Positions 9,313-54,784 of a DNA stretch of 64,000 nt are shown here, piece after piece. Origin of the DNA: Thermodesulfovibrionales bacterium (GTDB lineage Bacteria > Nitrospirota > Thermodesulfovibrionia > Thermodesulfovibrionales > SM23-35); assembly GCA_031082155.1 (NCBI GenBank), contig JAVHLL010000007.1, forward strand, positions 1,459-65,458, given 5' to 3'. Position 1 is the stretch's first letter; each line of letters starts with the position of its first letter. The notes under the pieces were generated by a model. The model had not been told where the DNA came from. It was given only the letters and a program-made list of their open reading frames with translations, and did no database searches. The position numbers were made by a program, and so were the translations under genes.

Positions 9313-10218
9313 ATGGACAGGAGAACGTTTCTCAAGTCAGCAGCAATAGCAGGATGCGGGCTGCTCGCCGGTGAACGGTTCTCTAACCTGACACCTGTTT
9401 GGGCAGCAGAACAGTTTGACCTCGTAGTCGCGCAGGGCACCGGAAAATCACCGGAAGCCATCACAAAGGCTGCGCTTAATGCAATCGGTGGCATAAAGAA
9501 ATTCATCTCCCGTGGGGATGTGGTCGTCGTCAAACCGAATATAGGCTGGGACAGACTGCCGGAGCAGGCAGCCAATACAAATCCTGAAGTCGTCGCAGCA
9601 ATCGTGAAGCTCTGCTTCGACGCAGGGGCAAAAAAGGTCAAGGTATTCGACAGGACATGCAATGATCCGAGGAGGTGTTATAAACAGAGCGGGATAGCAG
9701 ATGCCGTGTCAGCCCTCGGTGCAGAAGTCAGTTTCATTGACGACAGGAGGTTCAGGGACATCCCGATAAAAGGACAGGTGCTGAAAACATGGCCGCTCTA
9801 CAGGGATATTTTTGAAACAGACAAGATCATTAATGTTCCCATTGCGAAACACCATGGTCTCGCAAGACTCACCATGGCAATGAAGAACTGGATGGGCGTC
9901 ATGGGCGGGAACCGCGGGAGCATCCACCAGAAGATCGGAGAAAGTCTTGCAGATATTTGTCTGGTGATCAAACCAACACTGACGGTCCTTGATGCCGTCC
10001 GTATTCTTACGGCAGACGGTCCGCAGGGAGGGAACCTGAAAGATGTAAAGAGACTCGACACAGTGATTGCGGGAGTCGATCAGGTCGCAGTGGATACTTA
10101 CGGCGCCACCCTTTTCGGCATGCAGGGTTCTGATCTCTCATACGTTAAGGCGGGAGCCTCCATAGGCATAGGGAATATGGACCTTTCCAGAATGAAGATC
10201 AGGAAACTGAATGTCTAA
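9313..10218 (+). CDS. DUF362 domain protein with Tat signal
   Basis: Start reset to the ATG at 9313 (AAGGAGG 5 nt upstream). 'MDRRTFLKSAAIAG' is a twin-arginine signal, and 'VVVKPNIGW' is the DUF362 core. Confidence 0.75.
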   Translation: MDRRTFLKSAAIAGCGLLAGERFSNLTPVWAAEQFDLVVAQGTGKSPEAITKAALNAIGGIKKFISRGDVVVVKPNIGWDRLPEQAANTNPEVVAAIVKLCFDAGAKKVKVFDRTCNDPRRCYKQSGIADAVSALGAEVSFIDDRRFRDIPIKGQVLKTWPLYRDIFETDKIINVPIAKHHGLARLTMAMKNWMGVMGGNRGSIHQKIGESLADICLVIKPTLTVLDAVRILTADGPQGGNLKDVKRLDTVIAGVDQVAVDTYGATLFGMQGSDLSYVKAGASIGIGNMDLSRMKIRKLNV

Positions 10219-11761
10219 AAAATATCTCAGGAAGATTTCGCAGGGGGTTTTCCTCTTCCTGTTCCTCTTTCTTTTCATCCAGACTGAATCAAAGGGTAAC
10301 GATATCCTCGGCTATCCCGTCAGGCTGTTCCTCGACTTCGATCCGCTCATTTTTCTCGCAACGCTCTTTGCTTCGCACGGGGGGGAAATACCTGCGGCAT
10401 TTTTTCTCTCTCTTGTCACGGTCTTCGTGACTGTTGTCCTCGGCAGGGTGTTCTGCGGGTGGATCTGTCCTCTCGGAACGCTCAATACCGTTGCAGGATC
10501 ATTCAAAAAACGGCATCCCGGTCCGATGCATCCCCATTGGCACAAGATAAAGTATTTTATCCTTATTGTGCTTCTCGCATCCTCGGTCTTTACCCTTCAG
10601 CTCGCCGGGATTATGGACCCCCTCTCACTCCTGATCAGATCCTTCTCTTTAAGCGTCTATCCAATGCTGAATTATGGAATCAGGGGAGTATTCGATGCAA
10701 TTTACCATACGGATATCCCCGCAGTGGTGAATCCCTCTGAAGCGGTATATGGATTTCTGAAGAGGACGCTGCTCGCGTTTCAGCAGCCATATTTTCTGCA
10801 GGCTTTTTTTATCGGCAGCATATTATTCCTCATCCTGGGACTGAACCTGATCGAGAGAAGATTCTGGTGTAAATACCTTTGCCCTCTCGGGGCACTGCTC
10901 GGTCTCTGTTCCCGGTATTCCCTGCTGAAACGGGAGGTGAGTGAAGGATGCACGGGTTGCGGAATATGCTCGAATGCCTGTCAGGGAGGTGCCCTGTCCG
11001 AAAAAAGCGAGACCTGGAAGCATACTGAATGCCTTGCCTGTTTTCACTGTGATGATATCTGTCCCCAGAACGCCGTCAGTTTTGGATTCGGGCGGCCGGA
11101 AACACAGTCCCTGGATCTCGGCAGGAGGCAGGTCTTAGTCTCAGTGCTCTCGGGGGTTCTTGCTGTCCCGTTATTCAGGTCAGCGCCTTTTTCAAAATCC
11201 GGGTATTCTGATCCCCACCTGCTAAGGCCGCCCGGAGCGCTTGAGGAGAAAGAATTCCTCAGGAGATGTGTAAAATGCGGCGAGTGCATGAAGGTATGTA
11301 TAACCAACGGCCTTCAGCCAACTCTTGTTGAATCAGGAATTGAAGGCATCTGGTCTCCAAGGCTTATCCCAAGAATCGGACACTGCGAATATCGCTGCAC
11401 CCTCTGCGGCCAGGTCTGTCCTTCCGGTGCGATCAGAGAACTGCCTCTTGAGGAAAAGATGAAAGTGAAGATAGGGCTGGCTATGATCGACAAGGGCCGT
11501 TGCCTTCCTTACGCTCACGCGGTCCCCTGCATTGTCTGCGAAGAGATGTGCCCTACATCTCCCAAAGCCATATGGCTGGAGGAAATCGCAGTGAAAGGAA
11601 GAGACGGGAAAACCCTGCTTGTCAAACAGCCGCATATAGACCTCGATCTCTGCATAGGATGCGGGATCTGCGAAGCGAAATGCCCTGTCGGCAGCCGGGC
11701 GGCGATCTATGTGACGAACATCGGGGAATCAAGATCGAGAGAGAACCAGCTGCTTATTTAA
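10211..11761 (+). CDS. Membrane polyferredoxin (NapH/MauN-like 4Fe-4S binding protein)
   Basis: 516 aa with TM helices carrying 'CGWICPLGT' and 'CKYLCPLGA'. Several CxxCxxCxxxCP ferredoxin motifs. It overlaps the DUF362 gene by 8 nt. Confidence 0.8.
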   Translation: MSKKYLRKISQGVFLFLFLFLFIQTESKGNDILGYPVRLFLDFDPLIFLATLFASHGGEIPAAFFLSLVTVFVTVVLGRVFCGWICPLGTLNTVAGSFKKRHPGPMHPHWHKIKYFILIVLLASSVFTLQLAGIMDPLSLLIRSFSLSVYPMLNYGIRGVFDAIYHTDIPAVVNPSEAVYGFLKRTLLAFQQPYFLQAFFIGSILFLILGLNLIERRFWCKYLCPLGALLGLCSRYSLLKREVSEGCTGCGICSNACQGGALSEKSETWKHTECLACFHCDDICPQNAVSFGFGRPETQSLDLGRRQVLVSVLSGVLAVPLFRSAPFSKSGYSDPHLLRPPGALEEKEFLRRCVKCGECMKVCITNGLQPTLVESGIEGIWSPRLIPRIGHCEYRCTLCGQVCPSGAIRELPLEEKMKVKIGLAMIDKGRCLPYAHAVPCIVCEEMCPTSPKAIWLEEIAVKGRDGKTLLVKQPHIDLDLCIGCGICEAKCPVGSRAAIYVTNIGESRSRENQLLI

Positions 11762-11791
11762 TTTCACCTTGAACACATTCCTGTCCAACAG

Positions 11792-11956
11792 AGGGTTATA
11801 GCTCCATTTCTGAAGACAGCTCACGGGTAACTTCGATAAGGCTGAAGACGAAGCGGAAGCCTCAAGTTTGGATTGAATGAAAACATTGCAGTCAGATACC
11901 AGCAGGGACAGAGACAAAGGTAGTTTAGCTGGCTTCAGAAATGGAGCTATAACCCT
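11792..11956. repeat. Structured repeat element, copy 1 (candidate ncRNA of unknown class)
   Basis: A 29-bp closing stem (11792-11820 / 11928-11956, one A/G mismatch) encloses 107 nt. The interior shares a 44-nt core (39/44 identical) and the same architecture as 35919-36086, with compensatory changes. Confidence 0.6.
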
Positions 11957-11974
11957 ACTTTTCAGACTGCAATA

Positions 11975-12601
11975 CTATCCCTCTTTTTTCTCCCGTTTCA
12001 TCATCCGTTCCCTGAACCACCGCATGATATCGTCGTATGATGGCGGGGTGATGAGAAAGACCTCTATGTCCCTGGGGAATTGCAGTTTAGCCCTGTCTTC
12101 GTCCTTCAGGATCAGCAGGCCTGCTTCAGCTTCGGAAAGGTTTTTATCGATCACTTCGATCATATGATCGAGCCTTCTGGTCGCACTCTCCGTATAATAT
12201 TCAATAATTTTCGTAAAAACCTCATGGGTATATATCACTCTGAGGCAATTCCCCCAGTCGGTAAACGGCCCCAGGATATCCTGATCCTCAAGGGGGATGA
12301 GAACCCCTCCCTCCTCGCTTTTCTTTTTGATAATCTGAGGTATCCGTTCATTTATCCGGGACAGGACAGCGAGGGAATCGTCATCAGTCCCGGTGATGAT
12401 TTCACAGAATATCTTCTTTATCTTCCCGGCTGTCTCCATCTTCTCAATCTGCGCTATCGCCTGATCCCAGTATTTCCGGACAAGATCAGTGTATTCCTCC
12501 GGAGCATCTTCAAGGGAATACATGTTTGCGACACAATAGAGTTTTCTCTTACCGGCAAAGTTCCCGGCTTCCGGTTTATGAATCTGTCCGATTTCAACCA
12601 T
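11975..12601 (-). CDS. Hypothetical protein, last gene of the EPS operon
   Basis: 208-aa ORF with normal charged composition, 22 nt downstream of the ligase gene. The antisense ORF 12080-12727 has Phe/Leu/Ser-rich shadow composition. Confidence 0.55.
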   Translation of the reverse strand: MVEIGQIHKPEAGNFAGKRKLYCVANMYSLEDAPEEYTDLVRKYWDQAIAQIEKMETAGKIKKIFCEIITGTDDDSLAVLSRINERIPQIIKKKSEEGGVLIPLEDQDILGPFTDWGNCLRVIYTHEVFTKIIEYYTESATRRLDHMIEVIDKNLSEAEAGLLILKDEDRAKLQFPRDIEVFLITPPSYDDIMRWFRERMMKREKKEG

Positions 12602-27970: not shown

Positions 27971-28049
<79 letters not shown>

Positions 28050-35865: not shown

Positions 35866-35918
35866 ATTATCAATTGTACTCTAAATTATAGTATCCATCC
35901 CATTCAAAATATTAGATA

Positions 35919-36086
35919 TAAGGGTATAGCTGGGTTTCCAAATCGAAATCACGGGTAACTTCGATGAGACCGAAGACGAAGCGGAGGTCTCATCCCCGGA
36001 TATTTCAATACCATTGAAAGTCAGCAAAAGTTTTACAGAGAAATAAAGGGAGTTTATTTCGATTTGGAAACCCAGCTATACCCTTA
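35919..36086. repeat. Structured repeat element, copy 2 (candidate ncRNA of unknown class)
   Basis: A perfect 31-bp closing stem (35919-35949 / 36056-36086) encloses 106 nt. It carries the same conserved core and hairpins as 11792-11956. Confidence 0.6.
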
Positions 36087-36222
36087 GTTTCTCCCAGGTT
36101 GAAATACTTGTTTTTAACAGGTCTGATAAAATTTATACCAATCATCCGAAAATTCAAAAGTGATTCAGTCACTTCAACAGAATATTTTGACAAAGATATC
36201 GCATGAGGAGTATTTTTACAGT

Positions 36223-54708: not shown

Positions 54709-54784
54709 GGGCGGTTAGCTCAGTTGGGAGAGCGCCACGTTCGCAACGTGGAAGTCGGGGGTTCAAGTCCCCTACCGTCCACCA
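54709..54784 (+). tRNA. tRNA-Ala (anticodon CGC), CCA encoded
   Basis: Hand-folded: acceptor GGGCGGT/ACCGTCC with the G3:U70 Ala identity pair, D arm GCTC-AGTTGGGA-GAGC, anticodon arm CCACG-TTCGCAA-CGTGG, T arm GGGGG-TTCAAGT-CCCCT. Confidence 0.9.

Follow-up and report, generated by a model that had tools for sequence, protein, structure and literature searches.

Two structured features in a Thermodesulfovibrionales genome are probably the inner modules of an undescribed miniature inverted-repeat transposable element family

The Correia elements of Neisseria (CREE or NEMIS) are 100–155 bp long and have a TA duplication. They can carry promoters at their ends, bind IHF and be cut or protected by RNase III, and their transcripts form long hairpins (PMC2649163). 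QMITE2, a MITE (miniature inverted-repeat transposable element) of Coxiella burnetii, has 7–9-bp direct repeats, terminal inverted repeats (TIRs) of 23–29 bp, a core of 113–145 bp and a very stable predicted stem-loop in its transcript; Nitrospirota and Thermodesulfovibrio are unmentioned in the same review of prokaryotic MITEs (PMC10969869). In Acinetobacter, MITEAba12 is a noncoding, AT-rich element of 113 bp with imperfect TIRs and 9-bp duplications, for which ISAba12 is the proposed parent insertion sequence (IS) (PMC6382973). Among the subgroups of the IS4 family, IS231 and ISH8 have 5'-CAT ends and IS4Sa has CA------T, with direct repeats of 8–12 bp (PMC2266710, Table 1). Here we analysed a 64,000-nucleotide stretch of contig JAVHLL010000007.1 of a Thermodesulfovibrionales bacterium (the window), in which two structured features had been annotated. 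These two features are very probably the inner modules of two old copies, each of ~230 bp, of a non-autonomous MITE family specific to Thermodesulfovibrionia. The family is previously undescribed but is an ordinary kind of element, although its folded core is conserved to an unusual degree and can be inverted in place, and we found no earlier report of it in the literature on MITEs or ISs of Thermodesulfovibrio and Nitrospirae.

The new family resembles Correia elements in being small and noncoding, in having TIRs around a conserved core, in its dispersal through intergenic DNA and in the outward-facing −35-like hexamer TGGACA of its TIRs. It differs from them in sequence, of which none is shared, in its length of ~230 bp and its 9-bp duplication, and in its second, internal inverted repeat of 30 bp, which inverts the core. 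Its 9-bp duplication, TIRs of ~20 bp and core plus arms of ~165 bp are similar to the corresponding parts of QMITE2, although the host phylum is another and the two have no common sequence. Like MITEAba12, it is noncoding with imperfect TIRs and 9-bp duplications, but it is twice as long, has a conserved structured core and has no identified parent IS. The TIR (CATACCTGTCC...), the CAT ends and the 9-bp duplication recall IS4-family members (IS231, ISH8, IS4Sa and MIC231-type derivatives), whereas no DDE/YREK transposase with such ends was found; as the likeness amounts to three end positions and a duplication length, the link to IS4 appears to be one of resemblance only. Finally, as in invertible promoters (invertons), a short segment bounded by inverted repeats occurs in both orientations at one locus, but in this case without a detected promoter, a nearby invertase or switching seen within a population.

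A complete copy consists of a 20-bp TIR, a linker, a 30-bp arm, a core of ~105 nt, a second 30-bp arm, a linker and a 20-bp TIR, and is bracketed by a 9-bp target-site duplication. Complete copies are 222–236 bp long, which is within the MITE size class (less than ~500 bp), and they are noncoding: the median length of the longest ATG-initiated open reading frame within the inner module is 28 aa and the maximum is 55 aa, and indels between copies are not multiples of three. A small reading frame in the core (MRPKTKRR... in copy 2) was considered and rejected, since it is not conserved and its ATG is absent from that place in copy 1.

Relatives of the two window copies were numerous. When one genome per species was scanned for a sequence pattern, 26 exact matches with the same spacing were obtained, all in metagenome-assembled genomes (MAGs) of Nitrospirota, Thermodesulfovibrionales or Dissulfurispiraceae and at most seven per MAG, whereas nine other matches, spaced differently and located in GC-rich coding sequence, appear to be fortuitous. 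A second pattern scan, of metagenome contigs, gave at least 120 loci, and a profile search over 155 loci (designated by L numbers) and the window gave 102 full-length modules, 94–95 of them unique. Together, the pattern scans and profile searches added more than 100 copies from genomes and metagenomes of Nitrospirota/Thermodesulfovibrionales, including an orthologous filled site of copy 2 in a Thermodesulfovibrionales MAG (L017). There was no match to copy 1 in plasmid and phage collections by BLAST and none in a scan of viral contigs. All copies are intergenic, in unrelated contexts and in any orientation. With respect to the genes on either side, the core is oriented at random (−/− 18, +/− 12, +/+ 11 and −/+ 11 in 52 scorable copies), and the only proteins recurring in the neighbourhood of the examined loci are of housekeeping type, for example ABC ATPases and Lon-like proteins.

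Aligning the copies with wide flanks defined the ends of the element. The left TIR, CATACCTGTCCAAAATAAAT, lies ~22 nt upstream of the 5' arm, and the right end, ATTATTTTGGACAGCAGTG, lies 8–9 nt past the 3' arm and reads inward as the right TIR CAYTGSTGTCCAAAATAATA. TIRs of ~20 bp are present at both ends in 43 copies. Directly outside them are 9-bp direct repeats, which are perfect in 11 of the 43 copies and match at eight or more of nine positions in 17; the mean match was 6.1/9, as against 3.0/9 for shuffled partners (highest shuffled mean, 3.9). The initial annotation had seen no target-site duplication and could assign the features to no known MITE class, reading them as a structured RNA or single-stranded DNA element. 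At the family level, TIRs of ~20 bp and 9-bp duplications exist, and together with the derivatives and the empty site described below they speak against a free-standing RNA gene. The annotation had itself named an IS or MITE with terminal repeats and duplications as the finding that would speak against its reading; this is what we found, except that the family had not been catalogued before. It was correct that there is no transposase, reverse transcriptase or Cas gene beside the window copies.

The unit bounded by the TIRs is what moves, as derivatives of the element confirm. A 54-bp element (L045:9973–10027) that retains the TIR pair and some of the left linker, and nothing else, is flanked by a perfect 9-bp duplication, TAACAGATT, and another derivative lacks the 5' arm and the core. 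In a composite subfamily of 380–393 bp, a second element of 155 bp is nested within the 3' core at a constant position (L015:3939–4331, L015:60–415 on the − strand, L082, L084, L045, L094 with two copies, L105, L039, L152 and L064). Because composites at different loci carry their own 9-bp duplications (9/9 at L084), the composite itself has transposed; the 3' half of the core thus tolerates a 155-bp insertion in a subfamily that still transposes. The nested element of ~155 bp is MITE-like, with the ends TAAAATAGCC... and ...GGCTATTTTA. These TIR-only and composite derivatives with duplications of their own suggest that the core is dispensable for movement. We also considered that the inner module might be a separate element within a TIR-only carrier, and rejected this because a flanking direct repeat was found in one subfamily only; the TIR-only element is more likely a deletion derivative. 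We propose that a DDE transposase acting in trans and recognizing only the TIRs cuts and pastes the element, and the CA(T) ends and a duplication of about one helical turn would fit the IS4 family. Since the transposase was not found, both the mobilization in trans and the assignment to IS4 are inferred. A TIR scan of the 155 loci for a parent IS revealed only solo ends and deletion derivatives, and no distant pairs of TIRs.

Several further arrangements were seen at other loci. A solo left TIR, TATACCTGTCCAAACTAAAT, lies at L025:840–870 (− strand) directly after the duplication of a complete copy, which suggests that an older remnant received a tandem or nested insertion. In one MAG, two copies (L019:1350–1612 and L029:5219–5320) contain a different insertion of ~110 nt, with CCCTGCGG...CCGCAGGG and CCCCGTCGGCTTGCCGCGG, at different points of the core and in opposite orientations; this is probably another small mobile element. 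The outward −35-like TGGACA is present in both TIRs, 6 nt from the tip (TTAACA at 36114–36119 in copy 2), and is paired with a −10-like hexamer in the flank in 7 of 81 copies. Insertions could thus create hybrid promoters, as judged from these hexamers, and none was detected at the window copies.

The features of the two window copies are as follows.

11776–11789, + strand: copy 1, remnant of a left-type TIR, CATTCCTGTCCAAC, which resembles the family TIR CATACCTGTCCAAAATA and is missing from the empty site at L157.
11792–11821, + strand: copy 1, 5' arm of the closing stem formed by the internal inverted repeat, the stem pairs covarying in 87 copies.
11824–11835, + strand: copy 1, predicted hairpin P1a, CGGG[UAAC]UUCG, ~90% conserved where the search pattern imposed nothing.
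11837–11864, + strand: copy 1, hairpin P2, AGGCU/AGCCU around the 14-nt loop GAAGACGAAGCGGA (11844–11857).
11865–11926, + strand: copy 1, 3' half of the core, with a variable middle and the conserved blocks GUCAG (11891–11895) and AAAGGUAGUUU (11916–11926).
11927–11956, + strand: copy 1, 3' arm of the closing stem, after which the right TIR is absent.
11957–11975, no strand: degraded host palindrome ACTTTTCAGACTGCAATAC, outside the element and adjoining the stop codon of the 208-aa gene.
35895–36125, + strand: copy 2, whole MITE of 231 bp, with degenerate TIRs and with core and arms inverted relative to them.
35895–35914, + strand: copy 2, right-type TIR CCATCCCATTCAAAATATTA.
35919–35949, + strand: copy 2, 5' arm, 31 nt, perfect.
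35952–35963, + strand: copy 2, hairpin P1a, CGGG[UAAC]UUCG.
35964–35993, + strand: copy 2, hairpin P2, AUGAGACC/GGUCUCAU around the loop GAAGACGAAGCGGA (35972–35985).
36056–36086, + strand: copy 2, 3' arm.
36106–36125, − strand: copy 2, left-type TIR CAGACCTGTTAAAAACAAGT, read on this strand.

The coordinates first annotated (11792–11956 and 35919–36086) therefore enclose a real structure, but this is just the inner module, and the element extends beyond it. The long closing stems were described correctly: the 30-nt arms of copy 1 are 97% complementary, with one mismatch, and 105 nt apart, and the 31-nt arms of copy 2 are 100% complementary and 106 nt apart. The inner part of the stem had been called completely different between the two copies; in fact the arms align at about half of their positions, and the differences are indeed compensated. 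Both copies fold with z-scores of −7.6 to −10.9 relative to shuffled sequence on either strand. The core blocks TCACGGGTAACTTCGAT and GAAGACGAAGCGGA occur in the window only at these two copies (chance expectation, 0.14 and 0.5 matches), and a search with covariance model R1 did not reveal a third copy there. In copy 1, the TIR remnant is only 2 nt from the 5' arm, where typical copies have a 22-nt linker, and the linkers of copy 2 measure 6 nt and 22 nt, as against the typical 22 nt and 8–9 nt. Copy 1 lies between convergent genes, a Fer4-domain gene (10211–11761, + strand) and the gene for a 208-aa protein (11975–12601, − strand) that closes a cluster including genes for a Wzy_C protein and a GNVR tyrosine kinase. 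The genes on either side of copy 2 are divergent and encode an ABC ATPase and a patatin-like protein.

The locus of copy 1 could be compared with an empty site, which we located by searching for homologues of the 208-aa protein and comparing their contigs with the window. L157 and L158 have the same gene order as the window (GNVR, Wzy and 208-aa gene, followed by convergent Fer4 and DUF362), and their 208-aa protein is 85% identical. The convergent stop codons are 32 nt apart in L157/L158, as against 213 nt in the window, and the extra DNA of the window consists of the left TIR remnant (11776–11789), the arms and the core. The short interval (L157:3628–3659) holds a perfect 19-nt palindrome, GCATTTCAGACTGAAATGC, without a T-run, which is possibly a terminator shared by the two genes. 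A candidate right TIR of copy 1 at 11957–11975 was ruled out, as the empty site contains this host sequence too. Copy 1 thus represents a truncated insertion, rather than the 3' tail of the exopolysaccharide operon that had been proposed: it was inserted between the Fer4 stop codon and an ancestral palindrome located behind the stop codon of the 208-aa gene. In L156:3628–3860, where the neighbouring protein is 97% identical, the copy 1 insertion is present together with an extra insert of 16 nt, which disturbs P2 and makes an additional AGGCU/AGCCU hairpin between P1a and P2; the DNA downstream of this orthologue differs from that of the window. The 208-aa protein (11978–12601, − strand) has no Pfam match and 466 homologues at E ≤ 1e-10; those with an organism name among the 120 listed are few and all from Nitrospirota/Thermodesulfovibrionales. 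A protein from a Thermodesulfovibrionales MAG (P0001) is 97% identical to it, which, with the orthologous site in L017, places the window in this order. In the distant relatives L159 and L160 the gene for the 208-aa protein lies in another gene neighbourhood.

We analysed the structure of the inner module in an alignment of 87 copies, using column shuffles and slid partner columns as controls. Paired cells made up 89.2%, as against 78.4% in shuffles and 28–47% with slid partners, and changes on both sides of a pair accounted for 363 cells, with 93 expected; none of 500 shuffles reached the observed values. Both sides change in 23 of the 27 stem pairs. In the closing stem and P2, compensatory pairing goes beyond the effect of relatedness, a result that recombination between the arms can mimic. 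P2 alternates as a whole between GAGACC/GGUCUC and GAGGCU/AGCCUC; the compensation first noticed between the window copies (AGGCT/AGCCT versus GAGACC/GGTCTC) is real and is the main split of the family (GC:54/AU:32 and UA:53/CG:31). In P1a, which is CGGG[UAAC]CYYG in the family, the 3' strand changes almost only between C and U opposite G (GC:61/GU:20 and GC:71/GU:12). An analysis by mutual information with average product correction recovered the long stem and P2 and no further helix in the core. The third hairpin that had been drawn (TGAATG.../TTTCAAT...) folds in both window copies, but is neither conserved nor covarying in the 87 copies.

In the middle of the stem (ATTTC/GAAAT), the sequence itself is invariant, and not merely the pairing. 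The 5' core is ~90% conserved, also at positions free of pattern constraint and in six copies that escape both patterns, and each of the six copies that neither pattern selected has 13 of the 14 loop nucleotides. In orthologues with decayed TIRs, the 5' core is 91–96% identical and the adjacent 40-nt flanks are 62–68% identical, a difference inflated by the pattern-based ascertainment of the copies. The 5' core, that is, P1a and P2 with its 14-nt loop, probably binds a factor. Rfam contained no corresponding family, in keeping with the initial annotation: at gathering thresholds the whole window gave only two tRNAs (the genes at 27971–28046 and 54709–54781), and at E ≤ 10 both copies gave only chance miRNA and snoRNA matches. 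Several known classes were also considered and rejected. A hammerhead (UCGAUGAG...stem...CUCAG), examined by eye, lacks the GAAA after stem II, and Rfam was silent. For attC sites, retrons, omega-RNA/HEARO, Y RNA and 6S RNA, there is no adjacent reverse transcriptase, integrase, TnpB or IscB gene and no Rfam match, whereas TIRs with duplications are present.

The base pairs of the stem carry a strand signal. When the copies are oriented by their core, there are 151 G·U cells and 27 A·C cells on the + strand, corresponding to 95 and 24 parsimony events on a tree built by the unweighted pair group method with arithmetic mean, and series of pairs pass via G·U and not via A·C (AU:33/GU:21/GC:27 and GC:38/GU:19/AU:24). 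This excess of ~4–5:1 contradicts the hint of − strand transcription in the initial annotation; the A·C beside the loop hairpin of copy 1, from which that hint came, is a derived break of a pair that is G–C in 82 of 87 copies and holds no signal for the − strand. Judged from these pairs, the bias points to a + strand that acts as a single strand, most likely as RNA and possibly as single-stranded DNA. A terminator signature with a T-run was not found. Random orientation, the lack of a conserved promoter and the lack of a terminator argue against a dedicated transcript, in conflict with the G·U bias.

In-place inversion of the core was also observed. The two linkers differ in length (22 nt versus 8–9 nt), and they are swapped in 7 of the 43 TIR-defined copies, including copy 2; swapped linkers mean that arms and core are inverted relative to the ends. 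At one orthologous locus, the core of L099 is reversed exactly between the arms relative to L024, L006 and L031, with flanks that are 93–95% identical to those of L024/L006 and 84–90% identical to those of L031, and L056 and L141 form a second flipped orthologous pair. Core inversion at orthologous loci implies that the arms recombine. Arm recombination in turn provides a non-selective route to 'compensatory' changes, which makes it the main rival to selection at the RNA level. The six copies scored as core-inverted have 24–26 Watson–Crick pairs of 27 and no G·U. Flips were seen only between different genomes, and opposite orientations within one sample were not found. The earlier statement that selection acts on the structure thus holds in part: pairing of the stem and P2 has been maintained through many two-sided changes, but recombining arms allow another reading of them. 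The explanation that we favour combines two processes. Recombination or template switching between the arms would keep them complementary and also flip the core, and selection would act on a single-stranded hairpin of the + strand, most likely RNA made by read-through or from weak promoters, in which the stem of 27–30 bp would serve as a stabilizing or RNase III-type processing hairpin.

Several observations weigh against the conclusion that the window features belong to a MITE with a selected core. A transposase with matching ends is absent from the 155 loci and from the vicinity of every copy, and a positionally conserved (sigma-70-like) promoter is also absent, the best candidate occurring in 8 of 81 copies. 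Core conservation is partly imposed by the search patterns, with only six copies escaping them for the loop, and the disruption of P2 in L156 speaks against strong constraint in that lineage. The TIRs of the window copies are degenerate (copy 2) or partly missing (copy 1, right TIR), and neither has a clear duplication, with 5/9 matches for copy 2. Because their own TIRs and duplications are degenerate, the mobility of the window copies rests on family membership and on the empty site.

It is quite possible, if short of an even chance, that the palindrome matters only as DNA. The element would then be a MITE with no RNA role, its compensation arising from arm recombination, gene conversion or quasipalindrome template switching, and the conserved core and P2 palindrome would be protein-binding DNA, for example subterminal transposase sites or sites for a host factor. 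The repeated inversion of the core, also among close relatives, fits this explanation, as do the near-perfect arms without wobble pairs in the six core-inverted copies, the fixed sequence at the stem centre, the lack of a conserved promoter and the random orientation relative to neighbouring genes; the symmetric half-sites of a dimer-binding operator would also covary like base pairs. By contrast, strand-symmetric processes are not expected to yield a 4–5:1 excess of G·U tied to core orientation, nor pairs that go through G·U but not A·C intermediates, nor a P1a that varies only between C and U opposite G. Strong covariation and G·U bias, together with a conserved core with hairpin loops and the lack of an Rfam match, which would make it new, are what a non-mobile, free-standing family of structured noncoding RNA genes (or a single-stranded DNA element) would predict, with the window loci as paralogous RNA genes. 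We consider this scarcely credible in view of the TIRs with 9-bp duplications, the empty site, which already contradicts immobility, and the deletion and composite derivatives with duplications of their own; moreover, there are up to seven exact-pattern copies per MAG in unrelated intergenic contexts and any orientation, and neither promoter nor terminator is conserved.

Two further explanations assign the element a role in its host. In a mobile inverton, a site-specific recombinase supplied in trans would flip the core between the 30-bp arms and so change the expression of neighbouring genes. Both orientations do occur, even at orthologous loci with flanks up to 95% identical, so that, as in an inverton, the segment between the inverted repeats occurs either way round at a single locus; the arms contain invariant blocks, and copy 2 is flanked by a divergent gene pair, whereas copy 1 is found where a surface-polysaccharide cluster ends. 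We nevertheless regard this as very improbable, since three other hallmarks of invertons were not found: the core holds no conserved promoter, no recombinase gene recurs near the copies, and flips occur across genomes and never inside one sample. In addition, inverted repeats of 30 bp that are ~105 bp apart can invert without a dedicated enzyme. Alternatively, single copies may have been exapted by the host, with the hairpin between convergent genes acting as a bidirectional terminator, a stabilizer of mRNA 3' ends or an RNase III site, as Correia elements do in Neisseria (PMC2649163). Orthologues with decayed TIRs do keep intact arms and a 5' core better conserved than its flanks, and convergent genes surround both copy 1 and the L024/L031 copy. 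We think this unlikely, given that such contexts account for only 12 of 52 scorable copies, that the T-run signature of a terminator is absent, that the site of copy 1 had a palindrome of its own before the insertion, and that the conservation estimate is inflated by ascertainment.

What began as a candidate novel structured RNA thus has a concrete and mostly ordinary answer, an undescribed MITE family in a poorly studied phylum, and its anatomy (TIRs, 9-bp duplication, internal arms and core) can be used by annotators of Nitrospirota genomes and metagenomes. It also holds a caution for the discovery of RNAs by covariation, as palindromic mobile DNA with recombining arms can yield compensatory changes of the textbook kind. 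Three properties of the family are out of the ordinary, namely the strand-specific excess of G·U wobble pairs, a 5' core kept even in immobile copies and the repeated inversion of the core in place. Together they offer a tractable system in which to ask whether the MITEs of bacteria carry RNA or regulatory cargo that is under selection. It is doubtful, but conceivable, that the P1a and P2 core closed by the ~30-bp stem constitutes a structured RNA with a function, or a regulatory cassette able to flip, which is under selection of its own and uses the MITE as its vehicle. If true, this would be a mobile, orientation-switching non-coding RNA gene that has spread through Thermodesulfovibrionia genomes.

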